Shown: piece by piece, positions 1,768 to 63,461 of the stretch
Layout of the letters: each line of letters begins with the position of its first letter
Position numbering within the stretch: position 1 is the stretch's first letter
Translations under genes and position numbers: made by a program
The notes under the pieces: generated by a model
Told to the model about the DNA's origin: nothing
The model's database searches: none
Seen by the model: only the letters and a program-made list of their open reading frames with translations
Origin: an uncultured virus (IMG/VR IMGVR_UViG_3300021399_004696)
Lineage: Duplodnaviria > Heunggongvirae > Uroviricota > Caudoviricetes
IMG/VR virus record: IMGVR_UViG_3300021399_004696
Strand: one strand, 5' to 3'
DNA: 64,000 nucleotides

Positions 1768-1810
1768 GTAACACCTGTTCCGGGACTGTTTGGAAATTTA
1801 TTAACATATT
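1768..1810 (+). promoter_or_regulatory. GTAACAC-N3-TTCCGGG-N20-CATATT promoter motif
   Basis: One of 15 intergenic copies with fixed 20-nt spacing to a -10-like hexamer. Confidence 0.7.
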
Positions 1811-1854
1811 TAATATGTGATAAGGGGATAGAGCCCCTAATAATTTTAAAATCG

Positions 1855-2319
1855 GTGGTCAGATATATGATAAAAGATAAGTTAATCAAAACATTTGATT
1901 CCATTTTGGATAAAACAGTTCCGATGCAGTTTACATCTTCTTTTGATACGCCTTCTTATGGGCCGGTTCCCGAGAAAGTCATTCATTATATAACAAAAGA
2001 GTTGCAGCAGAACGGATATAATCTTTTCAACCCCCAGCGCAAATCATCCAGGGCTATAGAGTGGGATGTTTCCGAAATAGGAACCAAGGTAGCGTCTGGA
2101 ATAAAATTCAGGTTTGGTGTTAACCAGGAGCGAGATACGATTTATACATCGCTTCGGGAAGGGCAGAATGTGCTGACTCAGTATAATATCCGGGAGATCG
2201 GAACCGTAAAGATAACCAAAGGTCAGGGTGGGGAAGTCGAGGTTAATAATCCTATGACTGAAGATAAAGTAGAGCTTGAGATGCGGGACCGTTTTGATTT
2301 TAGGGACTACGATCTGTAA
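1855..2319 (+). CDS. hypothetical protein
   Basis: 154-aa ORF filling the gap; start uncertain. Confidence 0.7.
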   Translation: MVRYMIKDKLIKTFDSILDKTVPMQFTSSFDTPSYGPVPEKVIHYITKELQQNGYNLFNPQRKSSRAIEWDVSEIGTKVASGIKFRFGVNQERDTIYTSLREGQNVLTQYNIREIGTVKITKGQGGEVEVNNPMTEDKVELEMRDRFDFRDYDL

Positions 2320-2321
2320 AG

Positions 2322-2354
2322 TTCCGGGACTTTTTCTGTTTTCTATAGCATTAT
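2322..2354 (+). promoter_or_regulatory. TTCCGGG-N20-CATTAT promoter motif
   Basis: Recurrent motif with fixed spacing. Confidence 0.7.
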
Positions 2355-2386
2355 TTAATTAATTAAACAGAAAGGAGTCTTTTCAC

Positions 2387-2899
2387 ATGGAGCAAAAAGG
2401 CTATATTACAACCAAAGACGGCGTCCTGAATTTGTTACAGACTCAGGATAAGGTATACAGGCGCGATGCTGAGAAGGTAGGAAGCGACAGATTGTCTGCA
2501 AGGGTCTGGGATCTTAAGCACATCGACAAGTATGACATCCTGACTTTTTATGAGACCCGCATCATCCACAAGGGCGAGCGCAAGGGCTGTAAGAAGAGAG
2601 AAGTATATTACATGCTTTGGGAAAAGGTATGTAAGTACATAAAGCCCGAGACGGTTTGCGATTTTCTTGCAAGCACTGGCTGGACGGAATATGAGTATTC
2701 AAAGTCCGGTAAGGATGAGTTCAGGTGGTTCACCAAGTACAGAAAGCCTATGAAGGACGGTAAGGGTACTGTAGCGATCCCTTTGGATCAGGACGGATTT
2801 AATTATCCGACATACATGAAGACGGCCCTTGTGTATATTTGGGAAAATAACGCCAAGTATAAGAAGTTCGTTGATCTGGTAAAGAAGGTTATGGACTGA
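2387..2899 (+). CDS. hypothetical protein
   Basis: AGAAAGGAG RBS; basic 170-aa ORF. Confidence 0.8.
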   Translation: MEQKGYITTKDGVLNLLQTQDKVYRRDAEKVGSDRLSARVWDLKHIDKYDILTFYETRIIHKGERKGCKKREVYYMLWEKVCKYIKPETVCDFLASTGWTEYEYSKSGKDEFRWFTKYRKPMKDGKGTVAIPLDQDGFNYPTYMKTALVYIWENNAKYKKFVDLVKKVMD

Positions 2900-3058
2900 T
2901 TTTTGGGCTAAATTGTGCAATCCCGTTCGTTTGGGAGCGCGATTTCCTTAAAAATTTGTTGTATAATGTAACATATAGAAATATGTTTCAAGGGGTTTAG
3001 CCTAACAAGCTTGCCCCTTTTATAATGCAATTTTTTGTACAGAGTATAGGAGCAGAAG

Positions 3059-3862
3059 ATGGAAAAGATAAAGGTTAATGAACTGTTTTCGGGAATAGGG
3101 GCTTTTAGGAAGGCGCTGGATAAACTTGAGATTCCGTATGAGATAGTAGGGATATCTGAAATAGACAAGTTTGCTATCAAGTCATATGAAGCGATCTTTG
3201 GCCCGACACGCAATTACGGTGACATTAGTAAGATCGATGCTTTAGATTATGCAGACCTTTGGACCTGGGGGTTTCCTTGTACCGACATCTCGGTAGCAGG
3301 CGAGCAGAAAGGCATGATCCAGGGCGAAACTCGAAGCGGATTGCTCTATGAAGTTATCCGTCTTTTAAGAACTGCAGTCGAAAACGGTACGGCGCCTAAA
3401 TTTTTGATAATGGAAAACGTAAAGAATCTGGTAGGTAAAAAGTTCGGTGAGCAGTTCAAAGAAGTGGTTAAAGTCCTGGATTCTCTCGGATATGATAATT
3501 ACTGGCAGGTATTGAAAGCTTCGGATTACGGAGTGCCTCAGAGAAGAGAGCGTGTCTTCATGGTCTCTATCCGCAAAGACCTCGGCAAAACATTTTCTTT
3601 TGCAGACCCGATACATTTAGATACTTCTTTTGCGGATCTGTTAGAAGATGCAGATGAGGTAGATGAGAAATACTATCTGACTGAAGGTTACCTTGAGGGA
3701 TTTGAAAGCCGAAACATAAAAAACAAAGAGCGTGGAGTGAATTTTATATTTGAACCTCAGAAGAGGGGGGAGCAGCAGATCGCAAAGACGATAACAACAA
3801 AAGCCGGGCAGAGGCCGTGCGATAACTTTGTGATAGAATGTGAGGAGAAGAAAAATGGATGA
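3059..3862 (+). CDS. DNA cytosine-5 methyltransferase, N-terminal part (motifs I-VIII)
   Basis: ELFSGIG, catalytic GFPC, ENV, PQRRERVF; motifs IX-X absent. Confidence 0.93.
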   Translation: MEKIKVNELFSGIGAFRKALDKLEIPYEIVGISEIDKFAIKSYEAIFGPTRNYGDISKIDALDYADLWTWGFPCTDISVAGEQKGMIQGETRSGLLYEVIRLLRTAVENGTAPKFLIMENVKNLVGKKFGEQFKEVVKVLDSLGYDNYWQVLKASDYGVPQRRERVFMVSIRKDLGKTFSFADPIHLDTSFADLLEDADEVDEKYYLTEGYLEGFESRNIKNKERGVNFIFEPQKRGEQQIAKTITTKAGQRPCDNFVIECEEKKNG

Positions 3863-5075
3863 CAGAAGTTTTGGGTCTAAAGGGAGCAAATCGTTAATGA
3901 GTTATACACTTATGCATAAAGATCAGCCCGTTCTTGAGTGCTTGATAGACAGCAAGACTGGAGTTATTGCTAAGATCAATGAAGTTCATTCTTTGGAACA
4001 CGCTCCTCTAGGCGGGTTAAGGTCTGACGGTAAACTTGACAGACACGAATTGAACAGCTGGTGGGTTGGCAGATCGATTCCGTCGCACCGTATGCACATA
4101 CAGAATGTTTTAGACACCCTTGGTGTCAATGATACAAAAATGCTTTTAACTAAAAGTTTTGGATTGAGTCTTTCTGATCAGTATTGGGTTAAGCCTCAAA
4201 ATTCCAACATATCTTGGGAGCAGGTTAATTTCTTTACTAATACTTTTTCTGAAGACCTCGGGGATCTGTTGTTAGGGTTACCCGTAGATAAAAGCGGTAA
4301 AGATATCGATCTTAATGTGCCGGATAATACCTCGGACGGATACTTGGAAAAAGGTTGGAAGATCTTCGATGGTGTCAGATGCCTGGTGAAAGCGGGAGAA
4401 GCTCCTTTTTATCAGCAACCTTTCAATGAAGTTATAGCGGCCGATCTAATGGAAAGACTGGGCGTTAGCCATGCTGAGTATTCGGTTTGTTGGCTGAGCG
4501 AAAAACCTTATTGTGTAACGCCGGATATCGTAGACGTTGATCATGAGATCGTACCTATGGCACAGGTATTGAATGTTAAGAAACAGAAGGGCAGTGAGTC
4601 TATCTATCAACATACGATCAACTGTTGTAAAGATCTCGGGTTTGATAAAGTTGAAAAGTCGTTAAATGAGATGATGGTTATTGACTATATTTTAGGTAAT
4701 GAAGACAGGCATTTTAACAATTTTGGTTTGATGCGAAATGCTCAGACCCTTGAGATCGAAGGGCTGGTTCCTTTGTTTGATACCGGCTCATCTTTAGGCT
4801 ATAACAAGATAGCTCGTGATATAAGGGCAGAACGGGATATGGAATGTAAGCCTTTTAGAAAAAAGCACGAAGACCAGATTAAGCTGGTAAAAGATCTCAG
4901 TTGGGTGGATTTTAACGCTTTGGCCGACTTTTCTGAAAAGATACGAGAGGTTTTTAAAGGAGCAGAAGAGCTTGTCGGAAAGGATCGAATAGACGCGATC
5001 TGTCACGGAGTAGAAAAGAGAATAGGCCGATTAAAGGAAATGTCGGCTACTCTTATATCCGAGCCGAGCTTATAG
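3855..5075 (+). CDS. HipA-like Ser/Thr kinase domain protein
   Basis: SLSDQYW, SDGYLEKGW, DRHFNNFG and FDTGSSL motifs; GAGGAG RBS before ATG 3855. Confidence 0.85.
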   Translation: MDDRSFGSKGSKSLMSYTLMHKDQPVLECLIDSKTGVIAKINEVHSLEHAPLGGLRSDGKLDRHELNSWWVGRSIPSHRMHIQNVLDTLGVNDTKMLLTKSFGLSLSDQYWVKPQNSNISWEQVNFFTNTFSEDLGDLLLGLPVDKSGKDIDLNVPDNTSDGYLEKGWKIFDGVRCLVKAGEAPFYQQPFNEVIAADLMERLGVSHAEYSVCWLSEKPYCVTPDIVDVDHEIVPMAQVLNVKKQKGSESIYQHTINCCKDLGFDKVEKSLNEMMVIDYILGNEDRHFNNFGLMRNAQTLEIEGLVPLFDTGSSLGYNKIARDIRAERDMECKPFRKKHEDQIKLVKDLSWVDFNALADFSEKIREVFKGAEELVGKDRIDAICHGVEKRIGRLKEMSATLISEPSL

Positions 5076-5101
5076 AATATATAAACTTACAGAAACGGAG
5101 G

Positions 5102-5130
5102 AAAGAGCATCCTAAACGGGTGCTTTTTTA
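5102..5130 (+). terminator. intrinsic terminator after the HipA-like gene
   Basis: AGCATCC/GGGTGCT stem followed by a T run. Confidence 0.6.
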
Positions 5131-5140
5131 TTGGAACAAA

Positions 5141-5548
5141 ATGGATGGTTGTATTTTGGCCGGACGATTAGCCGGAGAAAAATGGGATAAATATCTGGAT
5201 CAGCAGAGGCGCGTTTATGATCCTAAAGGATTGTGTCCGACGTTGGTTACCAGTGTAGGTGGGCATCATATAGCTAAGATCTTGGAAAGGAGCAACGAAA
5301 TGGGCAAAGAAAGAACCAGAATCAGACGGCTGACACCGTTGGAGTGCTGGAGGCTTCAAGCCTTTGAAGACGAGGATTTTGAAAAAGCCTCAAAAGTTTG
5401 TAGTGATACACAGCTTTATAAACAGGCTGGCAACTCTATTGCGGTAGATGTATTGGTTAACGGCATATTAAAGCCTTTGCTTTTGGATGAGCCTCCTAAG
5501 CAGATGACTATTCAAGAAATAATCGCGGCTCAGGACGGAGGTGATTGA
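5141..5548 (+). CDS. DNA cytosine-5 methyltransferase, C-terminal part (TRD remnant plus motifs IX-X)
   Basis: IRRLTPLECWRLQAF and QLYKQAGNSI. Confidence 0.88.
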   Translation: MDGCILAGRLAGEKWDKYLDQQRRVYDPKGLCPTLVTSVGGHHIAKILERSNEMGKERTRIRRLTPLECWRLQAFEDEDFEKASKVCSDTQLYKQAGNSIAVDVLVNGILKPLLLDEPPKQMTIQEIIAAQDGGD

Positions 5549-5888
5549 ATTGGGAACAGAAGGAGCTGAAAACACTACTGCCGTAGTAAAAGTCGACATA
5601 AATTCGATGTATAAGATAAGCAGGATCGCCAACAACAACGGCGGGATTTCGTACGGGGCAGTGTTAAACGGGTTAATAGAATGTGTCAGAGAAGATCTGA
5701 ATGTATCTTTTTTGGATCTCTCGCCGTATTCATCGGATCGAGCGCATTCTCATCCCATCAGGATCTCGAAAGTGTCTTATGAAAAGGTTTGTCATATAGC
5801 TAAGCTTTCGGAAACATCAATCACCTGCATCTTAGGATTTATGGTGGCGCATTTCCCCGAGGATTTCTTGATTCAGGAGGGAATATGA
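5541..5888 (+). CDS. hypothetical protein, possibly small DNA-binding
   Basis: 115-aa ORF overlapping neighbours at both ends. Confidence 0.6.
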   Translation: MIELGTEGAENTTAVVKVDINSMYKISRIANNNGGISYGAVLNGLIECVREDLNVSFLDLSPYSSDRAHSHPIRISKVSYEKVCHIAKLSETSITCILGFMVAHFPEDFLIQEGI

Positions 5889-6664
5889 GTGGTAAAACTT
5901 ATAAAATAATAAACGGCGTTCTGATCCTGATCGCAAGCGCAGCGGTTATCGGACTGGGGTATAGCAGTTATAAGATCATTACCGCAAGGCAGGAAACAGC
6001 AGCTTTTGAAAAGGAGCTGGACGGTTTACAAGAAATGCGTGATGAGAACCTGCCCACAGCAGCGGTTGATCCAGGCGACGATGTTAACGCAGAAGATGTT
6101 AACGGAGACGGATATCTGGATGTGTACGAATCTTTTTACCTTTCAAATCCGGATTTTACGGGCTGGCTTACGATCGAAGGCACTGATGTGGACTTTCCTG
6201 TTATGCAGGCTTCGCAAGAAGATCCTACTTATTATCTGAGCCATAATTTTGACCGTGAATATTCAGTCTTTGGTTTACCTTTTGTTCAGGCGGAATGTAC
6301 GGTTGATTCTAAACAGGTAATTATATACGGGCATCACATGAGGCAATATAACATGTTCGCTCAGTTGGACCCGTATGTTGAGCAGGATTTTTACGATGAG
6401 CACAGGATCATTAATTTTGACACCCGCACTGAACATAGGGAATATGAAGTCTTTGCCGTTATAACGATCTCGGCTTTTGATGAGTCGTTTGCTTGGTGGC
6501 AATATCCTGACGGGTATGACGGATTTGTTGCTGATGCTTTAGAAAGGTCGTTGATAGATAACGGTGGTATGGAAGTATCAGATGATGATGAATTTATCAC
6601 ATTGGTGACATGTGAGTATACGCATAACAACGGAAGATTATTAATTATAGGAAAGCGTGTATAA
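5885..6664 (+). CDS. srtB: class B sortase
   Basis: N-terminal TM segment; IYGHHM, TLVTC, GRLLIIG. Confidence 0.92.
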   Translation: MSGKTYKIINGVLILIASAAVIGLGYSSYKIITARQETAAFEKELDGLQEMRDENLPTAAVDPGDDVNAEDVNGDGYLDVYESFYLSNPDFTGWLTIEGTDVDFPVMQASQEDPTYYLSHNFDREYSVFGLPFVQAECTVDSKQVIIYGHHMRQYNMFAQLDPYVEQDFYDEHRIINFDTRTEHREYEVFAVITISAFDESFAWWQYPDGYDGFVADALERSLIDNGGMEVSDDDEFITLVTCEYTHNNGRLLIIGKRV

Positions 6665-8133: not shown

Positions 8134-8988
8134 ATGGCGACAAGTAAGATATGGGCAGTTCATACCAGCTCTGGTAATAAGATCGGATATATAGAAGATA
8201 AGGAGAAGACGACAGCTTCTATAGAAGATTTGGTGCCGGTCGTAACTGAAGGTGTGAAGACAGATAACGGGCGTTTGGTTGCAGGCTTGAACTGTGACCC
8301 ATGGAGCGCCATGTCCGAAATGGAGTCTGTTAAACAGAAGTTCAGTAAGACAGACGGTGTGCAGGCATATCATGGCTATATCAGTTTTGGGCCGAAAGAT
8401 TCTATGTCAGCTACAGATGTACTTAAAGTTGCAAAAGAAGTGGCTGAAGATATCTGGGGCGACCGCTTTCAGGTTGTTTTGGCGGTGCATAACAACACAA
8501 ATACTTTGCACTGTCATTTTGTAGTTAATTCGGTGTCGTTTGTTGATGGTTTGAAAGCCAGAGACAACGAACATAACTATTACTACTTGAAGCAAAAAGT
8601 AGACGAGAAGTGTAAAAAGTATGATTTGGCGGTTACGGAACCTTATTCTCGTAAGATTGTGCCCAAGGGCGAAGTAATAAGAACTTTATATGAAGCCAAG
8701 GCGCAGGCGTCTGGCGATCGTGTTGCTTTTGATGAGCTTTTGCGCGAGAAAGGGTTTAAGTTCATTTCCGATGACCGCGTCAGAGCTCCTGACGGGAAGA
8801 GGTATATAACTACCGATCTTGATCCCAAATTGACAATTAAAGCCGCGGACTTTAAGACGTTTGATACGGAATCCGTTGCCAAGCCTGTCGTTCCTGCAGT
8901 TAATAAAACTGTTGAACAGGAGCAGAAAAAAGGCCTCGACCTTTCGTTTATGGAAGATATTTCCGGGCGTAAAGTCGATAAAGAATAA
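8134..8988 (+). CDS. relaxase/mobilization nuclease (MOBP family)
   Basis: N-terminal Tyr (IGYIED), AYHGYISF, and HUH motif HNNTNTLHCHFVVNSVS. Confidence 0.9.
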   Translation: MATSKIWAVHTSSGNKIGYIEDKEKTTASIEDLVPVVTEGVKTDNGRLVAGLNCDPWSAMSEMESVKQKFSKTDGVQAYHGYISFGPKDSMSATDVLKVAKEVAEDIWGDRFQVVLAVHNNTNTLHCHFVVNSVSFVDGLKARDNEHNYYYLKQKVDEKCKKYDLAVTEPYSRKIVPKGEVIRTLYEAKAQASGDRVAFDELLREKGFKFISDDRVRAPDGKRYITTDLDPKLTIKAADFKTFDTESVAKPVVPAVNKTVEQEQKKGLDLSFMEDISGRKVDKE

Positions 8989-24307: not shown

Positions 24308-24350
24308 GTAACGCCGTTTCCGGGCTTTTCTTCTTTAGGATCTTTATTAT
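24308..24350 (+). promoter_or_regulatory. GTAACGC-N3-TTCCGGG-N20-TATTAT promoter motif
   Basis: Recurrent motif. Confidence 0.7.
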
Positions 24351-24377
24351 ATATACATAAACATTTGGAGGTTCCCT

Positions 24378-25314: not shown

Positions 25315-25358
25315 GTAACACCGAATTCCGGGTGTTTTGACAATAGGTTATGTATAGT
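25315..25358 (+). promoter_or_regulatory. GTAACAC-N4-TTCCGGG-N20-TATAGT promoter motif
   Basis: Recurrent motif. Confidence 0.7.
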
Positions 25359-25444
25359 AAACATACAAGGCTGGTACTTCAGTTCAAACGGCTACTAGAC
25401 TGAAGAGAAACCGAGCCAAACGCTATTAAAAGGAGATTATTTAC

Positions 25445-26483: not shown

Positions 26484-26516
26484 TTCCGGGGCTTTTTCAT
26501 AAAAAGGTTGCAAAAT
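26484..26516 (+). promoter_or_regulatory. TTCCGGG-N20-CAAAAT promoter motif
   Basis: Recurrent motif. Confidence 0.7.
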
Positions 26517-26574
26517 GAAGAATAACGGTTAGCAATGTGCAAAGAATGCAAAGTGCAGAAGGGAGATTGCATTA

Positions 26575-41470: not shown

Positions 41471-41503
41471 TACCGGGTGGAATGGATACCTGCATAGTAT
41501 AGT
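41471..41503 (+). promoter_or_regulatory. TACCGGG-N20-TATAGT promoter motif
   Basis: Variant of the recurrent motif. Confidence 0.65.
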
Positions 41504-41532
41504 TGAATTAGGATCTTAAGAGGAGGCGGACT

Positions 41533-43939: not shown

Positions 43940-43972
43940 TTCCGGGAGTTTTTAAGTGGGTTATGATAAAAC
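43940..43972 (+). promoter_or_regulatory. TTCCGGG-N20-TAAAAC promoter motif
   Basis: Recurrent motif; imperfect -10 hexamer. Confidence 0.6.
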
Positions 43973-44001
43973 AAGGCAAACGGAAAGGAATTTAATGAAA
44001 T

Positions 44002-45546: not shown

Positions 45547-45579
45547 TTCCGGGTTTTTGACGGCGACGTTGTGTAAAAT
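45547..45579 (+). promoter_or_regulatory. TTCCGGG-N20-TAAAAT promoter motif upstream of the polymerase gene
   Basis: Recurrent motif. Confidence 0.7.
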
Positions 45580-45644
45580 CTACTTAGAAAACAAGACGGA
45601 TATGTGGGATTGGCTACCCTGCATATTTGGGAAGGTAGAACGAC

Positions 45645-51415: not shown

Positions 51416-51417
51416 CG

Positions 51418-51450
51418 TTCCGGGCTATTTAATTCGAAAGATGCGAAGAT
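51418..51450 (+). promoter_or_regulatory. TTCCGGG-N20-GAAGAT promoter motif
   Basis: Recurrent motif; weak hexamer preceded by TGn. Confidence 0.55.
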
Positions 51451-51519
51451 AAAAATATAAGCTGTTTACAGGTACGTGAGATCCGTTTGATCCGGCGGGA
51501 TAAAATAGGAGGGTAAGAT

Positions 51520-52752: not shown

Positions 52753-52785
52753 TTCCGGGTGTTTTAAGCTTGAAACCTCTAACAT
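52753..52785 (+). promoter_or_regulatory. TTCCGGG-N20-TAACAT promoter motif
   Basis: Recurrent motif. Confidence 0.7.
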
Positions 52786-52816
52786 AAAAGTATCAAAGAG
52801 TTTATGTGGAGGACTT

Positions 52817-54305: not shown

Positions 54306-54317
54306 GGAGGACTATGT

Positions 54318-56359: not shown

Positions 56360-56372
56360 GGAGACTATAGAA

Positions 56373-56807: not shown

Positions 56808-56821
56808 TTTACAACTTAGAA

Positions 56822-56854
56822 TTCCGGGCATATTTAAGTAACTTGGGGTATCAT
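56822..56854 (+). promoter_or_regulatory. TTCCGGG-N20-TATCAT promoter motif upstream of the tRNA-array leader
   Basis: Recurrent motif; a second, extended -10 (TGtTATGGT) lies at 56939-56947. Confidence 0.65.
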
Positions 56855-57066
56855 ATTTTTAATACATAGAGAAGAAAAGGTTTTTAGAAAAATTTTTTTA
56901 AGTAACACCAAAAACGCCTGGACTTTTCAAAATGGATATGTTATGGTTAATTCAGATAAAAGGAAGTGCCTGCCTGATATCTGATTACAAGATCTTAAAT
57001 AGGGATTATTTGTAATTGGATATGAGACAGGCATTTTTAATGAAAAAGAAGAAAGGAAAAACGGTC

Positions 57067-57213
57067 ATGAAAACTATGTCGTTAAGAAAAGTGCATATGT
57101 GGAATCTGGAAACGCAGAAGATAAGTGCGTTGGCTTTCACCTGCTCACTTAATGATGTAGCAGAGCGTTTTGACGGTATTTACGGATATCCCAATACAGG
57201 TGGGCGATCTTAG
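57067..57213 (+). CDS. putative attenuator leader peptide (48 aa, all 20 amino acids)
   Basis: AAAGG RBS; 42 distinct codons; stop codon overlaps the antiterminator arm. Confidence 0.7.
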   Translation: MKTMSLRKVHMWNLETQKISALAFTCSLNDVAERFDGIYGYPNTGGRS

Positions 57214-57281
57214 GGTTATAGGATTATAAGTTGTTTCTATAAGATCGCTCGAAGTTTCAAAGGTTCGGGCGATTTTTTATT
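57202..57281 (+). promoter_or_regulatory. attenuator: antiterminator 57202-57212/57240-57250 versus terminator 57243-57253/57264-57274 plus T run
   Basis: Two mutually exclusive 11-bp helices share 57243-57250. Confidence 0.75.
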
Positions 57282-57372
57282 AGAAAAATCAAGTAGGGAA
57301 GGGGAGTGTTAAAAACAGGCATTAAAACAATAAGGGGGTCATTAAAGCAGGCACTTCAAGGCTCTCTTATCT

Positions 57373-57448
57373 GGACAGTAAGCTAATCTGGTGAAAGCAT
57401 CGGTTTGAAGCACCGAAGAGGTTGGATCGAAACCAACACTGTCCACCA
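57373..57448 (+). tRNA. tRNA-Phe(GAA), atypical
   Basis: Cloverleaf with CCA; A8, T-loop ATCGAAA, anticodon loop TTGAAGC. Confidence 0.75.
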
Positions 57449-57453
57449 TATAT

Positions 57454-57530
57454 GGGGCTTTAGCTCAGTTGGGATGAGCGTCTGCCTTGCAAGCAGAAGG
57501 TCACGAGTTCGATCCTCGTAAGCTCCACCA
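57454..57530 (+). tRNA. tRNA-Ala(TGC)
   Basis: Cloverleaf; G3:T70; CCA. Confidence 0.95.
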
Positions 57531-57535
57531 TATAT

Positions 57536-57612
57536 GCTCGATTAGCTCAGCTGGGATGAGCATCTGCCTTACAAGCAGAGGGCCGGGGGTTCGAAACCCT
57601 CATCGAGCACCA
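57536..57612 (+). tRNA. tRNA-Val(TAC)
   Basis: Cloverleaf; loop CTTACAA; CCA. Confidence 0.93.
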
Positions 57613-57616
57613 CAAC

Positions 57617-57666
57617 TTTATCGGTTCATGTGACCCGATAAATGGTCCGATAAATGACCCGATAAT
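57617..57666. repeat. 12-bp repeats TGACCCGATAAA-like (one inverted, three direct)
   Basis: 57617-57628 inverted; direct copies at 57631, 57643 and 57655. Confidence 0.7.
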
Positions 57667-57815
57667 ATCGATATTGTAAGCAGGCACTTTAATATCGAAT
57701 CGAACTTTGACAATTAAATATTCTTCCATATTCACTATATCCCTGTGGCGAAGGGTTGTTCAGGGTATTTCGGTGGATCGGCCTGAGCATAAAACCTAAC
57801 CGTCCACTGTCTTTT

Positions 57816-57891
57816 GTCCCATTGGTGTAATGGTTTAGCACTCCTGCCTTCCAAGCAGGCAATGAGGGTTCGATTCCCTTATGGGGCTCCA
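57816..57891 (+). tRNA. tRNA-Gly(TCC)
   Basis: Cloverleaf; loop CTTCCAA; TCCA end. Confidence 0.93.
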
Positions 57892-57896
57892 TATAT

Positions 57897-57983
57897 GGGT
57901 GGGTAAACCGTAGTTGGTAGCGGGTCAGACTGTAAATCTGATGTCTTTCGGCTCCGGGGGTTCGATTCCCTCCCCACTCACCA
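57897..57983 (+). tRNA. tRNA-Tyr(GTA)
   Basis: Loop CTGTAAA; long variable arm; CCA. Confidence 0.92.
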
Positions 57984-57987
57984 AAAT

Positions 57988-58064
57988 GGATGCGTAGCTC
58001 AGTTGGCAGTAGCAGCAGACTCTTAATCTGAAGGTCGCAGGTTCGATGCCTGTCGCATCCACCA
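57988..58064 (+). tRNA. tRNA-Lys(CTT)
   Basis: Loop CTCTTAA; CCA. Confidence 0.92.
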
Positions 58065-58069
58065 CATAT

Positions 58070-58145
58070 CGAGGTGTAAGCCAGTGGTCAGACGGCGTGC
58101 CTTGGGAGCACGAAGACGAAGGTTCGAATCCTTCCACCTCGACCA
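58070..58145 (+). tRNA. tRNA-Pro(TGG)
   Basis: C1:G72; loop CTTGGGA; CCA. Confidence 0.92.
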
Positions 58146-58152
58146 TTTATAT

Positions 58153-58226
58153 CGTAGCTTCTTTCAATGGTAGGAAGCCCGTCTGATAAGCGGGTAATAC
58201 AAGTTCAATTCTTGTAGCTACGACCA
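58153..58226 (+). tRNA. tRNA-Ile(GAT)
   Basis: Loop CTGATAA; CCA; divergent D arm. Confidence 0.85.
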
Positions 58227-58331
58227 GGCGGGCCGACATACTAGTTGTTGTCGGATAGTGGCCAGAAGCCGAAAGCGGTGTTCCCGAAAGAAAGGCGCGT
58301 TATCCTTTCGGTTAAAGCCGTCCCGTCGCCA
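58227..58331 (+). ncRNA. tRNA-like orphan RNA with acceptor-type stem and GCCA end
   Basis: GGCGGG/CCCGTC closing stem; internal hairpins; no canonical D or T loops. Confidence 0.5.
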
Positions 58332-58335
58332 CTAA

Positions 58336-58412
58336 GGGCATGTAGCTCAGTTGGTCAGAGCATCCGGCTCATAACCGGACGGTCCAGAGTTCGAGTCTCT
58401 GCTTGCCCACCA
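58336..58412 (+). tRNA. tRNA with CAT anticodon, probably Ile2
   Basis: CGG-CTCATAA-CCG arm and CGGTC variable loop as in Firmicutes Ile2. Confidence 0.85.
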
Positions 58413-58418
58413 CATTTA

Positions 58419-58451
58419 TTCCGGGTGTTGCGGTCTAACACAAAGTATAAT
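58419..58451 (+). promoter_or_regulatory. TTCCGGG-N20-TATAAT internal promoter
   Basis: Recurrent motif with a perfect -10. Confidence 0.75.
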
Positions 58452-58465
58452 AAATATGTTGACAC

Positions 58466-58545
58466 GGCGCGTTGGTGAAGCTTGGTTCAACACACCGCCC
58501 TTTCACGGCGGCACTCACTCGGTTCAAATCCGGTACGCGTCACCA
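58466..58545 (+). tRNA. tRNA-Glu(TTC)
   Basis: CCGCC-CTTTCAC-GGCGG arm; CCA. Confidence 0.9.
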
Positions 58546-58549
58546 AGAT

Positions 58550-58625
58550 GCTTCTATAACTCAGTTGGTAGAGTGACTGCCTTGTAAGCAGTAAGTCCAG
58601 GGTTCGAGTCCCTGTAGAAGCTCCA
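58550..58625 (+). tRNA. tRNA-Thr(TGT)
   Basis: Loop CTTGTAA; CCA. Confidence 0.93.
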
Positions 58626-58631
58626 AAAGCC

Positions 58632-58930
58632 CGCCGAGGCCCGATCGTAAGGTCGCAGGCTGTGAGGTGAAAGACGGATCGCTGAGACGGTGTAGCCGGT
58701 AGATATGCGTATCGAAAGCTTTAACGCGAAAGGCTCGGTTTATAAGCAACCGGTTAAATGCTTATCCCCAAAGGCTCCGCGGGGTAAAAGCGGTTAGCTC
58801 CTAAACCGCAAGGCGCTTAGGGCGGGTGAAGGGGAGTTGCCTTATATGAGATCGATATAAGGTTTATGAAACTCCAAGCGCTAAAGTCGTCGACACCGTA
58901 ACGGACTGCAGTAACGTGTACAGGACGGCG
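58632..58930 (+). ncRNA. ~300-nt highly structured orphan RNA
   Basis: Nested long-range helices, GNRA loop and a potential pseudoknot; no ORF. Confidence 0.65.
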
Positions 58931-58938
58931 CATTATAC

Positions 58939-59013
58939 GGCCCTATGGTATAACGGCTATTATGGCGGATTGTCTCTCCGCAGACCGGGGTTCGACTCCC
59001 CGTAGGGTCGCCA
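58939..59013 (+). tRNA. tRNA-Asp(GTC)
   Basis: Loop TTGTCTC; GCCA end. Confidence 0.88.
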
Positions 59014-59180
59014 GTTAAGTGAGGGAGTTTCGGGAAAGGCTAATGGCTTTGAAAAAAGCTATTGGTCGGCACTGAAACAGGAAACGTGCAAAGAAGGGTT
59101 AGCCTTCATAAAGATGCGGGGAAGCTTTCCAGGCATCTTGAACTATCAGTCCCGATGCCAAAGACGGTGCATGTGCTGAC
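59014..59180 (+). ncRNA. ~170-nt structured orphan RNA
   Basis: TCGGGA/TCCCGA stem enclosing four hairpins, including a 13-bp GAAA-loop hairpin. Confidence 0.55.
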
Positions 59181-59188
59181 TTTAATAT

Positions 59189-59264
59189 TCTCGGGTAGTT
59201 CAATCGGTAGAGCAACGGACTGTTAATTCGTGAGTTGTGGGTTCGAGTCCCACCCCGGGAGCCA
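59189..59264 (+). tRNA. tRNA-Asn(GTT)
   Basis: Loop CTGTTAA; GCCA end. Confidence 0.93.
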
Positions 59265-59359
59265 AATAATCTAGGAAAGTGAGGGTTAGGATAGTGTTGG
59301 GGACTCCTAAGCTGATTTCCAAAGCGGAGGACCTTCGGTCTTTATAAAGGAGTGCGAGG

Positions 59360-59704
59360 ATGGAAATAGAACGGATCTCCAAAGATGAATTTGTAAAAAT
59401 TCTAAAAAAGATACAAGACGATTGGGATTTTTATTCTTTAATATCTTCTTTAGGTCATAAGAATAACAGAGAGGATACTTTGAATATATCGCCTAAGACC
59501 GTTGATGTTGCGATTGAGCTTTTAGAAAAGCTAAGTGGGGATAGGTATGAATATATTTCCTGGTGGTGTTTCGAAAAAGATTTCGGAAGACGAGTTGATA
59601 TAAATGTTTATGAAGGAAAGGGCGAAGATCAAATAGTTCCTACAGATACGGCGGAGGATCTTTATGATCTGATTACGCAGAATTTGCAAGAAAAAGCTTC
59701 TTAA
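59360..59704 (+). CDS. hypothetical protein within the tRNA array
   Basis: AAGGAG RBS; ISWWCFEKDFG and TAEDLYDL. Confidence 0.8.
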   Translation: MEIERISKDEFVKILKKIQDDWDFYSLISSLGHKNNREDTLNISPKTVDVAIELLEKLSGDRYEYISWWCFEKDFGRRVDINVYEGKGEDQIVPTDTAEDLYDLITQNLQEKAS

Positions 59705-59760
59705 TAGCGGATAGAAGAGGAAGGTCGTGACCATCGCTATCTGCTACGACCATATATTAA

Positions 59761-59884
59761 GAAGAGGTAGGTTGGGATTAAGTTACCCGTTCGCAAGGCC
59801 TTACCACCCGAAACCTGTGAGAGTCAAATATCGGGGAACTCCAAGGGATTTACCCTTGCCAGCGGAGGTTGGGCTCCGCACTTC
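59761..59884 (+). ncRNA. ~125-nt multi-branched orphan RNA
   Basis: GAAG/CTTC closure enclosing four hairpins. Confidence 0.45.
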
Positions 59885-59886
59885 AT

Positions 59887-59961
59887 GTTGATCTTGGTGT
59901 AATGGTAGCATTACAGATTGTGGCTCTGTCGGTATGGGTTCAACTCCCGTAGATCAACCCA
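59887..59961 (+). tRNA. tRNA-His(GTG)
   Basis: G-1:C73 pair; loop TTGTGGC; CCA. Confidence 0.92.
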
Positions 59962-59966
59962 AATAC

Positions 59967-60040
59967 GCGCCATTGGTGTAATGGTAGCACATTAGCTTCC
60001 CAAGCTGACAGTACGGGTTCGATCCCCGCATGGCGCTCCA
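59967..60040 (+). tRNA. tRNA-Gly(CCC)
   Basis: Loop TTCCCAA; TCCA end. Confidence 0.92.
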
Positions 60041-60067
60041 TTTTACGCCACAAAAATTTAGTGACAA

Positions 60068-60143
60068 GCTCCTGTTCGTCGTCGGCCGGCGGTGCGGTCT
60101 GCAAAACCGTAACATGTGAGTTCGAGTCTCACCGGGAGCTCCA
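60068..60143 (+). tRNA. tRNA-Cys(GCA)
   Basis: Loop CTGCAAA; U73; divergent D loop. Confidence 0.82.
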
Positions 60144-60146
60144 TAA

Positions 60147-60222
60147 GCCCCCGTAGCACAACAGGAGGTGCAACGCCCTTCTAAGGCGAAGGTTGCAGGT
60201 TCGAGCCCTGTCGGGGGTACCA
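60147..60222 (+). tRNA. tRNA-Arg(TCT)
   Basis: Loop CTTCTAA; CCA. Confidence 0.92.
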
Positions 60223-60240
60223 GTAATGTTAAGTGAATAT

Positions 60241-60316
60241 GCCCCTGTCTTTCAACCGAATAGGAAAGCGGTTTCCTAAACCGCCAATCAGAGTTTGAGT
60301 CTCTGCAGGGGTACCA
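60241..60316 (+). tRNA. tRNA-Arg(CCT), divergent
   Basis: Loop TTCCTAA; T loop TTTGAGT; CCA. Confidence 0.8.
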
Positions 60317-60330
60317 CAAATGAGTAATGA

Positions 60331-60369
60331 TTTGTGATGATTTTTCGGTTTTGTGATGATTTGTGATGA
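60331..60369 (+). repeat. three copies of TTTGTGATGA
   Basis: Copies at 60331, 60350 and 60360. Confidence 0.65.
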
Positions 60370-60388
60370 CTTATCAACACTTTAAAAC

Positions 60389-60463
60389 GGTCGCGTAGGC
60401 TAATGGATAGACTTTCTGACTACGGATCAGACGGTGCGGGTTCGACTCCTGCCGCGATCGCCA
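60389..60463 (+). tRNA. tRNA-Arg(ACG)
   Basis: Loop CTACGGA; GCCA end. Confidence 0.92.
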
Positions 60464-60494
60464 CGTCTTATAAAACACGATGAAGAAAGGAGTG

Positions 60495-60995
60495 ATGAAT
60501 ATCGTGTTCAGACAAGCTAACGGAAGAGAAATATCGATGGAAGGAATCGCTAAGCGGATCGCGGGTTTCATCAATGCCGATCTTCAAAGTGAATACGAGG
60601 TTACCGTGGGTACCGACAGTCAGAACTTCAGTAAGACTAAGATGGTAGAAGTCATAGCGGTACATCGTGCAGGGACGGGAGGGATCTATTTTTATAGCAT
60701 CGATTATATTCCTCTTATTCAGAATCTGAAGCAAAAGATCAATGAAGAGACTTCACGTAGCCTTATGGTGGCTAATGAACTTATTGATGAGTTGACTTTT
60801 GCACTGATGGAGAAAGAGCAGGATATAGATGAACTGAAACTTTCTTTCCAGATCCACTGCGACATAGGAAAATATGGTAAGACCAGCATGTTGATAAAAG
60901 AGATCACTAGTTGGGTAACCAGTCAAGGTTATGTATGTCTTATCAAGCCTGACAGCTATGCAGCAAGTGCTATAGCAAACAAGTATAGTAAGTAA
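60495..60995 (+). CDS. RNase H-like YkuK (DUF458) family protein
   Basis: VGTDSQ, KINEETSRSL, IHCDIG, IKPDSYAAS..AN. Confidence 0.9.
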   Translation: MNIVFRQANGREISMEGIAKRIAGFINADLQSEYEVTVGTDSQNFSKTKMVEVIAVHRAGTGGIYFYSIDYIPLIQNLKQKINEETSRSLMVANELIDELTFALMEKEQDIDELKLSFQIHCDIGKYGKTSMLIKEITSWVTSQGYVCLIKPDSYAASAIANKYSK

Positions 60996-61036
60996 AGGTT
61001 TCGGCGTTCCTTAAAACCAAAAACGCCGATCCATAT

Positions 61037-61113
61037 GGCGCCATCCTATAAACGGTTAGTAGACCGGACTCTCAATCCGGCAATGTCGGGTTCGATCCCC
61101 ACTGGCGTCACCA
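61037..61113 (+). tRNA. tRNA-Glu(CTC)
   Basis: Loop CTCTCAA; CCA. Confidence 0.9.
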
Positions 61114-61116
61114 TAT

Positions 61117-61192
61117 GCAGGATTAGCTCAATTGGTAGAGCGTCGCCTTGCCATGGCGAAGGTTGCGGGTTCAAGCCCCGTATCTTGCTCCA
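61117..61192 (+). tRNA. tRNA-Gly(GCC)
   Basis: Loop TTGCCAT; TCCA end. Confidence 0.93.
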
Positions 61193-61206
61193 CTTTTATA
61201 ATAAAC

Positions 61207-61283
61207 GCTTCCGTGGCGCAATTGGCAGACGCAGGCGGTTCAGGGCCGTCAGGTTCCGAGTTCGAGTCTCGGCGGAAGCACCA
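61207..61283 (+). tRNA. tRNA-Leu(CAG), short variable loop
   Basis: Leu-type D loop; loop TTCAGGG; A73. Confidence 0.85.
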
Positions 61284-61299
61284 CTTTGGAAAAACATAC

Positions 61300-61379
61300 G
61301 CCCGCGTAGCAGAATTTGGCATATGCGCCAGACTAAGGATCTGGGTCTTTTCGGGGTTCGACTCCCCGCGTGGGCACCA
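61300..61379 (+). tRNA. tRNA-Leu(AAG), short variable loop
   Basis: Loop CTAAGGA; A73. Confidence 0.85.
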
Positions 61380-61381
61380 AC

Positions 61382-61414
61382 TTCCGGGATTTATCAAACT
61401 TTTTCTTGTAATAT
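61382..61414 (+). promoter_or_regulatory. TTCCGGG-N20-TAATAT internal promoter
   Basis: Recurrent motif. Confidence 0.7.
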
Positions 61415-61431
61415 TAATCTTAGGTTGAAAT

Positions 61432-61508
61432 GTCCGATTGATGGAATTGGCATACGTGCCTGACTCAAAATCAGGATTTTTCGGGTTCGAGTCCCGAATC
61501 GGACACCA
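61432..61508 (+). tRNA. tRNA-Leu(CAA), short variable loop
   Basis: Loop CTCAAAA; A73. Confidence 0.87.
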
Positions 61509-61620
61509 GCTGGGGATGCCCGAGCACTCAAAGGGGCCGGCGCGTATCACCGGTGTCCGATGGACGGCGTGCACCTTGCGTCCAGGACTGCGTAGGTATA
61601 GAATCCTGCTCCCCGCACCA
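61509..61620 (+). ncRNA. aberrant tRNA-Tyr-like RNA with very long variable arm
   Basis: Tyr-like D arm; 9-nt loop with GTA; T-arm-like hairpin; ACCA end. Confidence 0.6.
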
Positions 61621-61632
61621 ATTTTCTTAAAA

Positions 61633-61709
61633 GCCCAAGTAGGCCAATTGGCAGAACCACCGGACTTAAAATCCGTATCGTGCCGGTTCGAATCCGGTCT
61701 TGGGCACCA
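61633..61709 (+). tRNA. tRNA-Leu(TAA), short variable loop
   Basis: Loop CTTAAAA; A73. Confidence 0.85.
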
Positions 61710-61713
61710 ACAT

Positions 61714-61787
61714 AGGCGTATGATGTAATGGTAGCATGACGGTCTCCAAAACCGTTTGTGTGGGTTCAAGTCCTACTACGCCTGCCA
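61714..61787 (+). tRNA. tRNA-Trp(CCA)
   Basis: Loop CTCCAAA; GCCA end. Confidence 0.93.
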
Positions 61788-61798
61788 TTAAAATAAAT

Positions 61799-61874
61799 GC
61801 CGAATTAACTCAGTTGGTAGAGTAGCGGTATCGTAAACCGCAGGTCGTGGGTTCGAGTCCCACATTCGGCTCCA
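61799..61874 (+). tRNA. tRNA-Thr(CGT)
   Basis: Loop ATCGTAA; CCA. Confidence 0.93.
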
Positions 61875-61876
61875 AC

Positions 61877-61909
61877 TTCCGGGTAGATTCGCCAGTGATG
61901 TGGCATACT
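61877..61909 (+). promoter_or_regulatory. TTCCGGG-N20-CATACT internal promoter
   Basis: Recurrent motif with TGn extension. Confidence 0.7.
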
Positions 61910-62006
61910 GAGATTAGTAACGAGGAAGGTGAAGGTATCATTCATGAATGTCACTGTTGTAATTGCGGAGCCCGCATTACATACAGAATACCGATAGGAG
62001 AAGAAA

Positions 62007-62243
62007 ATGAGGAAGCATAATGTCGATGAAATTCATCTGTCTGTAGATAAGGTTGAGATAGTTAATGATACGGTTATCATTAGCTGGAGCTCGGATATTG
62101 GATTCGGCGAGTACGAAATCTGTTGGTCTGAGGAAGCACAGGAATGGTGTGCATACACAGAATGTATGGATAGGGACGACGATAAGGCGTTCGGAGCCAA
62201 ACTTTTGGCACTGTGGATGGAGCAGATAAAGATAAGGGATTGA
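62007..62243 (+). CDS. hypothetical protein within the tRNA array
   Basis: AGGAG RBS; WSSDIGFGEY and TECMD..DK motifs. Confidence 0.75.
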   Translation: MRKHNVDEIHLSVDKVEIVNDTVIISWSSDIGFGEYEICWSEEAQEWCAYTECMDRDDDKAFGAKLLALWMEQIKIRD

Positions 62244-62250
62244 TCAAGAC

Positions 62251-62325
62251 GGCCGTGTAGTGTAAACGGTAGCACAGCAGACTTTGACTCTGTTAATGTG
62301 GGTTCGATCCCCGCCACGGCTGCCA
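62251..62325 (+). tRNA. tRNA-Gln(TTG)
   Basis: Loop CTTTGAC; GCCA end. Confidence 0.92.
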
Positions 62326-62348
62326 CATAGCAAATAATTTTTGAATAA

Positions 62349-62425
62349 GCGCCCGTAGCTCAGACGGTAGCAGCACTTGACTTTTAATCAAGGGGTCATG
62401 GGTTCGAATCCCATCGGGCGTACCA
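62349..62425 (+). tRNA. tRNA-Lys(TTT)
   Basis: Loop CTTTTAA; CCA. Confidence 0.94.
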
Positions 62426-62492
62426 ATATGAAGAATCTTGGCAAATCTGAAGTTGTACTTTGGATCAGTCAAATATACTGGAGAATGTTGAA

Positions 62493-62792
62493 ATGAAAAA
62501 ACTGCTGATCTTAGCTACTATGCTGTTTATGGTACTTGCTACTTTACTGGGCATTTGGTGCTATCGTGAATATAGGGCTGAGGAGAATGCCAAGGGCATT
62601 TGCATCAGTTATCGTGATCTTGATGTAGGGAGTACGTACGGGTTAGATGTTACATTCTATTCAGACGAAGAGCAGGTCGTAGGAACAGGGTATGTAGAAT
62701 TTCAGCCTGAGACAAAAGATTCATCTTGTTGCTTGATAGACTGCGATGTTCCTGAAGGAGCCACACACGCATCTTTCAATATAGTAGAGTAA
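62493..62792 (+). CDS. small membrane-anchored or secreted hypothetical protein
   Basis: GGAG RBS; MKKLLILA hydrophobic N-terminus. Confidence 0.75.
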   Translation: MKKLLILATMLFMVLATLLGIWCYREYRAEENAKGICISYRDLDVGSTYGLDVTFYSDEEQVVGTGYVEFQPETKDSSCCLIDCDVPEGATHASFNIVE

Positions 62793-62808
62793 ATAGGTTT
62801 TATAATAT

Positions 62809-62882
62809 TGCGAGGAGGGTCTGGTTCCCAAGAAGCTCTCATAAGGCTTCCTATCCGAGTTCAAGTCTCGGCTTCGCAACCA
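62809..62882 (+). tRNA. tRNA-Met(CAT), atypical (initiator-like acceptor stem)
   Basis: TGCGAGG/CTTCGCA; loop CTCATAA; reduced D arm; lacks the three G-C initiator pairs. Confidence 0.7.
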
Positions 62883-62887
62883 CATAC

Positions 62888-62978
62888 GACGGGGTGGCGG
62901 AGTCCGGTCTAACGCGCCGGTCTTGAAAACCGGAGGCCTCGCAAGGGTCCGTGGGTTCGAATCCCACCCCCGTCGCCA
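62888..62978 (+). tRNA. tRNA-Ser(TGA)
   Basis: Loop CTTGAAA; long variable arm; GCCA end. Confidence 0.94.
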
Positions 62979-62982
62979 TTAT

Positions 62983-63058
62983 GCTTCCATAGCTCAGTAG
63001 GCAGAGTGCATCCATGGTAAGGATGAGGTCGTCGGTTCGATCCCGACTGGAAGCTCCA
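62983..63058 (+). tRNA. tRNA-Thr(GGT)
   Basis: Loop ATGGTAA; CCA. Confidence 0.93.
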
Positions 63059-63063
63059 ATTAT

Positions 63064-63138
63064 AGCCCGATCGTATAACGGCTAGTATAGCGGTCTCTGG
63101 AACCGCGGATGAAGGTTCGATTCCTTCTCGGGCTGCCA
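63064..63138 (+). tRNA. tRNA-Gln(CTG)
   Basis: Loop CTCTGGA; GCCA end. Confidence 0.9.
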
Positions 63139-63150
63139 AACTTTTACTAT

Positions 63151-63241
63151 GCCGTGGTACCTTAGTGGGGAGGAGGCGCGGTTTCGAAAACCGTCGGTCG
63201 TGAATAACGATCTGTGAGTTCAAATCTCACCCACGGCGCCA
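63151..63241 (+). tRNA. tRNA-Ser(CGA)
   Basis: Loop TTCGAAA; long variable arm; GCCA end. Confidence 0.88.
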
Positions 63242-63274
63242 GGAATATGAAAGACTATTTAATTGTATAGAAAT

Positions 63275-63363
63275 GTCGTCATGGGGTAATGGTAGCCCAA
63301 GAGCCTGCTAAGCTCTCCAACCCATTACGGGTTGTCCGAGTTCGAGTCTCGGTGGCGACGCCA
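63275..63363 (+). tRNA. tRNA-Ser(GCT)
   Basis: Loop CTGCTAA; long variable arm; GCCA end. Confidence 0.9.
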
Positions 63364-63369
63364 GATCTG

Positions 63370-63397
63370 AAAGCACTCTCTTCGGAGGGTGTTTTTG
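63370..63397 (+). terminator. intrinsic terminator ending the tRNA array
   Basis: GCACTCTC-TTCG-GAGGGTGT plus T run. Confidence 0.85.
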
Positions 63398-63428
63398 TTA
63401 TGTTGCAAAGAAAAAGCGGTGGTCGTAA

Positions 63429-63461
63429 TGCCGGGCTTTTTTAGGAGCTGCTGAGTAATAT
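63429..63461 (+). promoter_or_regulatory. TGCCGGG-N20-TAATAT promoter motif
   Basis: Variant of the recurrent motif. Confidence 0.65.

Follow-up and report, generated by a model that had tools for sequence, protein, structure and literature searches.

A putative promoter class with a TTCCGGG box 20 nucleotides from a -10-like hexamer recurs across a Clostridia-type conjugative element

The stretch of DNA analysed here (64,000 nucleotides [nt], hereafter the window) is part of a longer IMG/VR virus record, IMGVR_UViG_3300021399_004696, and Pfam, PHROGs, and NCBIfam assignments identify in it a Gram-positive type conjugation system belonging to a Clostridia-type conjugative element. Fifteen sites in the window, each composed of the heptamer TTCCGGG or a close variant and of a hexamer resembling a bacterial -10 element, are well supported by the sequence as members of one predicted promoter class. 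All 15 had been listed in a preliminary description of this DNA and were recovered at their positions, 13 with the exact TTCCGGG box and one each with TACCGGG (41471) and TGCCGGG (63429). The separation of 20 nt given in that description holds for the stretch between the last letter of the heptamer and the first of the hexamer, and corresponds to 27 nt from start to start. This gap was identical in 15 of 15 sites, giving the class a near-fixed bipartite spacing.

A bipartite site at the head of most gene blocks

The sites are given below with their positions in the window and the open reading frames (ORFs) or transfer RNA (tRNA) genes that follow them.

1778..1817, + strand: TTCCGGG-20 nt-CATATT; predicted start near 1817, before ORF 1855-2319; GTAACAC at 1768 abuts the box, and a terminator-like hairpin (1746-1761) lies just upstream
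2322..2361, + strand: TTCCGGG-20 nt-CATTAT; heads ORF 2387-2899 and then the long methylase, sortase, relaxase, and type IV secretion string
24318..24357, + strand: TTCCGGG-20 nt-TATTAT; before the DUF2800 exonuclease gene (24378-25235); GTAACGC at 24308
25326..25365, + strand: TTCCGGG-20 nt-TATAGT; before ORF 25445-26218; GTAACAC at 25315
26484..26523, + strand: TTCCGGG-20 nt-CAAAAT; before the operon for pilin, sortase, signal peptidase, and a 3465-amino-acid adhesin (26575-41260); terminator-like hairpin upstream (26427-26440)
41471..41510, + strand: TACCGGG-20 nt-TATAGT, a variant and the weakest member; before 41533-43851 (two ORFs of unknown function and the RlaP nucleotidyltransferase); an 11-pair terminator-like hairpin (41438-41463) directly upstream
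43940..43979, + strand: TTCCGGG-20 nt-TAAAAC, with TGn before the hexamer; before the RNA ligase gene (44002-45069)
45547..45586, + strand: TTCCGGG-20 nt-TAAAAT; before the family A DNA polymerase (45645-48149) and the VapE-type primase-helicase
51418..51457, + strand: TTCCGGG-20 nt-GAAGAT, with TGn; before 51520-52723
52753..52792, + strand: TTCCGGG-20 nt-TAACAT; before 52817-56807 (a nuclease gene and others)
56822..56861, + strand: TTCCGGG-20 nt-TATCAT; at the head of the tRNA region, whose first tRNA lies at 57373
58419..58458, + strand: TTCCGGG-20 nt-TATAAT; between tRNA-Met and tRNA-Glu, predicted leader of 8 nt
61382..61421, + strand: TTCCGGG-20 nt-TAATAT; 2 nt past tRNA-Leu(aag), with a predicted start 11 nt before tRNA-Leu(caa)
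61877..61916, + strand: TTCCGGG-20 nt-CATACT; 2 nt past tRNA-Thr(cgt), before ORF 62007-62243 and further tRNAs
63429..63468, + strand: TGCCGGG-20 nt-TAATAT, a variant; before a lipoprotein-like ORF that begins at 63485 and runs off the window

The box is strongly enriched in the window. TTCCGGG occurs 21 times on the two strands together, compared to 5.31 ± 2.52 expected from 100 shuffles, none of which reached 21, and 17 of these copies are on the + strand and 4 on the - strand. Intergenic DNA, defined as neither ORF nor tRNA, makes up 6,305 nt or 9.85% of the window and holds 13 of the 17 + strand copies (binomial P = 1.3e-10); in an unbiased count of its 7-mers, TTCCGGG was the commonest. 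The composite TTCCGGG-N21-A-N3-T was found 12 times (0.41 expected), solely on the + strand, on which all credible genes of the window lie, so that the placement of the sites between genes and in the orientation of the genes, as originally described, is borne out. The remaining copies, four on the + strand in coding sequence and four on the - strand, match chance in number, and an in-frame -10-like hexamer accompanies none of them.

The spacing also stands out when the hexamer is reduced to NANNNT. This pattern occurs at a start-to-start offset of 27 in 12 of the 17 + strand copies, all 12 of them intergenic, while the other offsets give values of 0-3 with the exception of offset 33 (7), a secondary value explained by A and T residues that are conserved past the hexamer. 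A weight matrix built from the listed sites themselves yielded no further convincing site in the window, its best non-listed match scoring 13.7 against 19.4-37.7 for the listed ones. Leave-one-out scores ranged from 3.6 to 31.1, with the variant at 41471 lowest (3.6) and that at 63429 well inside the range (24.5); site 25326 was the best match to the class.

Alignment of the sites gave the consensus aaTTCCGGG-nn-TTTT-N14-g-TAtaAT and brought out three features absent from the preliminary description. A T-tract occupies heptamer positions +9 to +12, where each T carries about 1 bit; ten of the 15 sites have a G immediately 5' of the hexamer (-13); and eight have TA where -1/+1 would be expected (positions 38/39). 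The spacer and flanks carry almost no information, and the sites are thus not copies of one repeated cassette. The box itself is single and asymmetric, with no palindrome and with no hairpin or repeat structure of its own, and together with the T-tract it spans about -39 to -27. In the hexamer, A occupies position 2 in 15 of 15 sites and T position 6 in 14 of 15, and three to six of the six letters agree with TATAAT, as in a housekeeping -10 element. A housekeeping -35 element is lacking: the earlier statement that most sites have no TTGACA at the proper distance proved too cautious, as 0 of 15 exceed three of six matches at spacers of 16-18 nt. TGn precedes the three weakest hexamers (3 of 15 sites, about 1 expected) and is missing from the other 12. 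Across positions 1-60000, sigma-70-type promoter matches were not enriched (37, 56, and 27, compared to 40, 47, and 41 in shuffles).

The surroundings of the sites fit promoters. Predicted leaders measure 17-155 nt before protein genes, which leaves room for visible ribosome-binding sites, and 8-11 nt before tRNA 5' ends; terminator-like hairpins end 16-43 nt or less upstream of sites 1778, 26484, and 41471. Members of the class head nearly all blocks of the element, namely the leading-region ORFs, the methylase-to-secretion string, the nuclease, the pilus and adhesin genes, RNA repair, the polymerase and primase, and four points in the tRNA region; between sites 2322 and 24318 there is no other member. 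Because nearly all functional blocks begin in this way, the class would be the principal promoter type of the element and not a temporal subclass. The additional, speculative proposal that the CCGG core is a C5-methylation target found no specific support. The window does encode a C5 methylase, but CCGG is present at about its expected frequency (205 copies, 221 expected), and just 15 of the 205 fall in the sites.

Two other signals lie close to some of the boxes. GTAACAC, a second intergenic word, was counted 14 times (5.65 expected), and nine of its ten + strand copies are intergenic. It is found at 260, 1768, 9576, 14339, 19098, 25315, 54646, 55355, and 56902, with GTAACGC at 24308 and reverse copies at 24139 and 26465. 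At 1768, 24308, and 25315, 3-4 nt separate the end of the word or of its variant from the TTCCGGG box. At 260, 9576, 14339, and 55355 there is no box, and a -10-like hexamer follows 36-38 nt later; when the nine exact intergenic + strand copies and GTAACGC at 24308 are taken together, such a hexamer is found at offset 37-38 in 7 of 10. At 19098 and 54646 the word forms the loop of a G+C hairpin. GTAACAC may mark the binding site of another regulator or promoters of another type. The other signal consists of about 3-4 tandem repeats of 11 base pairs (bp) with the consensus CGAGTTAAACG (51372-51414), which abut site 51418 on the 3' side of an A/T-rich stretch and could be origin iterons or a phased operator array.

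Candidate readers of the box

The asymmetric single box and its unvarying distance from the -10-like hexamer suggest a reader that is rigidly coupled to the reader of the hexamer, and the identical spacing in all 15 sites fits one rigid reader of both elements. Such a reader could be either the -35-binding domain of a sigma factor or an activator locked onto the polymerase. The explanation we lean towards, to which we give somewhat less than an even chance, is that the sites are read by an element-encoded sigma-type specificity factor that went unrecognised or lies outside the window. TTCCGGG and the T-tract would then replace the -35 element, the hexamer would be read like an ordinary -10 element, and transcription would start about 7 nt after it. 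A dedicated specificity subunit, consisting of a single small sigma or of a split sigma, would bind the host core RNA polymerase and read the box; its gene would be carried by the element, either outside the 64 kilobases (kb) analysed or in a form too divergent for recognition, and the subunit would place the genes for conjugation, the pilus, replication, and RNA repair, together with the tRNA genes, in a single regulon. We favour an element-encoded sigma-type factor because of two precedents, SigN of plasmid pBS32 and Sig7-8 of Tn916. The sigma-70 family genes annotated in a related Monoglobus transfer region, described below, count on the same side.

In pBS32 of Bacillus subtilis, the plasmid-carried sigma factor SigN reads promoters almost only on the plasmid, its regulon being mostly plasmid-borne, and a promoter listed for it joins an unusual -35 to a housekeeping-like, A/T-rich -10, much as in the present sites; the SigN gene is itself preceded by a SigN-class promoter (PMC6751061). 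The two systems differ in the -35 sequence, which for SigN is a TTTACGTTT-type box as printed in the promoter table of that paper and here is TTCCGGG, and in that the SigN sites were mapped by end-enriched RNA sequencing (Rend-seq; PMC6751061), whereas the present ones are predicted from sequence. They differ also in reach, as the present class would drive conjugation genes and tRNA arrays, and no SigN-like gene was found in the window. For Tn916, a preprint reports that orf7 and orf8 together supply a split sigma of small subunits that drives the main promoter of the element, Psig7, and that the Orf8 part was missed by ordinary sequence methods (bioRxiv 10.64898/2026.10.01.756105). Under the sigma-type explanation, the likeness is that of a Gram-positive conjugative element with its own sigma-type factor; since split sigma subunits can escape family models, as the preprint indicates (bioRxiv 10.64898/2026.10.01.756105), a factor could be missed here. 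In contrast to the one main promoter described there for Tn916, about 15 dispersed putative promoters share a box here, and neither Pfam nor phmmer revealed a homologue in the window.

Several results weigh against an element-encoded sigma factor. The preliminary description had attributed the sites to one element-encoded activator or alternative sigma factor that co-regulates replication, pilus, RNA ligase, and tRNA genes. The shared promoter geometry before the replication and recombination genes (24318, 25326, 45547), the pilus genes (26484), the RNA ligase (43940), and the tRNA blocks (56822, 58419, 61382) bears out the sites as one class ahead of these genes, but the factor itself was not found, and the search for it brought to light no sigma and no known activator family in the window. 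Sigma-family genes were absent from the results of Pfam (62 proteins at E ≤ 0.01, with 27 unknowns followed to E ≤ 10), NCBIfam (42 proteins at E ≤ 1), and PHROGs (58 proteins). Three genes in the regulatory end of the transfer region of a Monoglobus record, the nearest annotated transfer-system relative, are annotated as sigma-70 family; compared by phmmer with 669 ORFs of the window, they matched none above the noise level (lowest E 0.076). The gap of 20 nt between box and hexamer is longer than that of familiar sigma factors. The housekeeping-like -10 element and the TGn at the three weakest hexamers fit the host main sigma acting with an activator equally well. In a strain comparison, contigs of four DNA runs, compared over 41440-61439, are about 1-3% different from the window, and the differences listed near site 43940 (43924, 43933, 43957, 43994, 44000) and site 52753 (52746) all fall outside the heptamer, the T-tract, and the hexamer, but those listed are only part of the total and no usable footprint could be drawn from them.

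We regard as rather unlikely on balance an arrangement in which the host housekeeping sigma recognises the -10 element and an element-encoded activator occupies TTCCGGG, working either in class II fashion or through sigma appropriation of the T4 MotA/AsiA type. The TAtaAT consensus is housekeeping-like, TGn accompanies the three poorest hexamers, and Pfam, NCBIfam, and phmmer revealed no sigma gene in the window, all as this arrangement would have it. In T4 middle promoters, the MotA box replaces the -35 element while an ordinary -10 is kept, and the class drives many genes; the MotA box has another sequence, lies nearer to the -10 (centred about -30), and tolerates slightly variable spacing. 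The box sequence and the 20-nt gap of the present sites are unlike this geometry, and their spacing, which never varies among the 15, is tighter than that of MotA boxes. SetCD and AcaCD, of SXT/R391 elements and IncC plasmids, provide a second example, in which one element-encoded activator serves many dispersed transfer promoters through a shared box near -35; these activators are FlhDC-like, are found in Proteobacteria, and use boxes that are longer and different. None of these families was detected in the window: MotA and AsiA homologues were absent by PHROGs (58 proteins) and Pfam (62 proteins), and no window protein matched FlhC or FlhD in Pfam.

The possible activator is the product of ORF 2387-2899 (+ strand), the only candidate box-binding factor in the window, a basic protein of 170 amino acids (isoelectric point 9.3) encoded directly behind site 2322. 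Its Atlas model weakly resembles small winged-helix HTH_39 phage proteins (template-modelling [TM] score 0.42 by query and 0.72 by target), and an asymmetric box of 7 bp would be within the reach of a winged helix acting as a monomer. This hint is counterbalanced by the low score by query and by an AlphaFold model from a two-row alignment that is unusable, with a predicted local distance difference test (pLDDT) value of 47.5. The protein is an orphan with two representatives among 1.84 billion proteins, that is, one distant relative, and gave no Pfam, NCBIfam, or PHROG match. It is a weak candidate, predicted from its model and position, and nothing ties it to TTCCGGG. An Atlas look-up of the neighbouring ORF 1855-2319 gave no lead.

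Reading by a host-encoded factor, with the element joining the regulon of an alternative sigma or regulator of its Clostridia-type host, would account for the lack of a factor gene among the Pfam, NCBIfam, and PHROGs matches of the window; we consider it improbable. The motif fits none of the Firmicutes sigma consensus sequences familiar to us, and relatives of this type of element, like other plasmids, bring their own sigma factors. The related transfer region in the Clostridia record is devoid of the motif: over 42 kb of similar G+C content, the Monoglobus record shows no composite site on the gene strand. A strict scan of viral contigs with AATTCCGGG-NN-TTTT-N16-A-N3-T returned 102 stretches, and the 80 of these that were listed were single hits on different contigs, as expected by chance. 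Such specificity to the element speaks for a factor of its own. No relatives were found in plasmids (megablast), in genome contigs (polymerase or VirB4 as query), or in viral contigs (VirD4 as query), and with the polymerase as query viral contigs gave relatives at 29-44% only. Among metagenome contigs, one of 3.3 kb is 99.85% identical to the window. Distant metagenome relatives lack the motif, with one match each in 3 of 12 loci and nothing box-like in the 7-mer counts of ten loci. A limited literature search found no description of TTCCGGG as a bacterial promoter element; the papers it listed were mostly on eukaryotes, and the bacterial ones among them deal with FNR proteins of Pseudomonas putida and with two regulators of Mycobacterium tuberculosis.

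It is more doubtful still that TTCCGGG is the operator of a repressor that silences -10-only promoters throughout the element. The box does overlap the -35 region at every site, and element-wide silencing is common in conjugative elements; steric repression needs neither an asymmetric single box nor an unvarying spacing to the -10, and promoters that have no -35 and, in 12 of 15 cases, no TGn would still be weak once derepressed. Very unlikely, finally, are sites that are not promoters at all and act in recombination, in replication, or at the RNA level between genes: three of them begin 2-6 nt past a tRNA 3' end, which could suggest processing or cassette joining, but the fixed spacing to an A/T-rich hexamer with a -10 pattern, the strict gene-strand orientation, the location before ribosome-binding sites, and the absence of any hairpin or repeat of their own argue for promoters.

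Gene content and probable host

The conjugation and surface genes assigned with Pfam, PHROGs, and NCBIfam are listed here in the order of their functions.

8134-8988, + strand: MobA/VirD2-type relaxase
12428-14314, + strand: VirD4 coupling protein
16175-16582, + strand: PrgI protein
16620-19091, + strand: VirB4-like ATPase
5885-6664 and 30118-30843, + strand: two sortases
28273-29607, + strand: pilin-like protein
29585-30121, + strand: signal peptidase
30863-41260, + strand: DUF285/LRR surface protein (the adhesin), 3465 amino acids

A phage-like replication set, to which a VRR-NUC protein also belongs, and genes for RNA repair and DNA methylation complete the inventory.

24378-25235, + strand: DUF2800 / PD-(D/E)XK exonuclease gene, replication set
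45645-48149, + strand: family A DNA polymerase, replication set
48166-49884, + strand: VapE-type primase-helicase, replication set
44002-45069, + strand: RNA ligase, RNA repair
42865-43851, + strand: RlaP nucleotidyltransferase, RNA repair
3059-3862 and 5120-5548, + strand: C5 cytosine methylase in two ORFs

Among annotated VirB4 proteins, the closest is 40.6% identical and comes from a record of Monoglobus pectinilyticus (Clostridia), and the closest matches of the polymerase, at about 40%, are in phages of Erysipelothrix, Streptococcus, and Oscillospiraceae. From these relatives, the host is probably a Clostridia-type Firmicute. The near-identical DNA, 1-3% different from the window, comes from contigs of runs labelled sheep gut and rumen metagenome; a look-up of positions 41400-51399 found no RNA run among those listed as carrying the element.

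The tRNA region contains 35 tRNA genes (57373-63363) that cover all 20 amino acids, and 32 of the 35 score above the Rfam threshold. On one conjugative unit, the element thereby unites 35 tRNA genes with genes for an RlaP-type nucleotidyltransferase and an RNA ligase (42865-45069), a set that resembles equipment for countering host defences that cleave tRNA. Such equipment is better known from phages, and tRNA arrays on plasmids have reportedly been described for mycobacteria and for one Bifidobacterium megaplasmid. Within the tRNA region, one contig of run X4 lacks 499 nt and has two other letters in their place (59266-59766), which suggests that strains differ here by an insertion or a deletion.

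Three further observations concern single loci. The first C5 methylase ORF (3059-3862) covers positions 2-240 of the Pfam profile and the second (5120-5548) positions 235-315, with a HipA-like kinase gene (3840-5075) between them; the methylase is either a split enzyme or one with a gene inserted in its variable region. Near the start of the window, two adjacent small acidic proteins (884-1291 and 1311-1727) are paralogues with 35% identity over 86 residues (E 4e-14); both terminate in ...RL(A/S)GPQH, belong to no known family, and may be located in the leading region of transfer. Only two sigma-70-type matches of 10 in 12 letters occur in + strand intergenic DNA of positions 1-60000, TTAACA-16-TAAAAT (19088-19115) and TTGATT-18-TATAAT. 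The latter precedes a stretch of 75 nt with a 14-bp hairpin and a U-rich tail (-30.5 kcal/mol, z -5.3), located within the 640 nt of gene-free DNA at 23738-24377, and the whole feature (23805-23915) is a candidate for a small RNA that might control replication or transfer.

An element with its own promoter code

That a mobile element can have its own promoter code is an established concept for phages, plasmids, and conjugative elements. In the present case, the 20-nt gap is unusual, and it is uncommon in a conjugative element for one class to extend to conjugation, to replication, and to a complete tRNA array. A broader reading, which we put forward as speculative and hold to be on the unlikely side, is that gene expression in the element is largely self-contained, in that its own promoter code, an unrecognisable and possibly split or non-canonical factor, 35 tRNAs, and RNA-repair enzymes would insulate the transfer, pilus, replication, and tRNA genes from the transcription control and the tRNA-targeting defences of the host.

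The box offers a simple handle for finding the regulator of the element and for recognising related elements in metagenomes, and with its factor it could serve as an orthogonal promoter/factor pair for Clostridia-type hosts. If the class is confirmed, the element would join pBS32 and Tn916 as a Gram-positive element that brings its own promoter specificity, and a single short box would mark out the entire transcription programme of this uncultured conjugative element from the ruminant gut, its tRNA array included.

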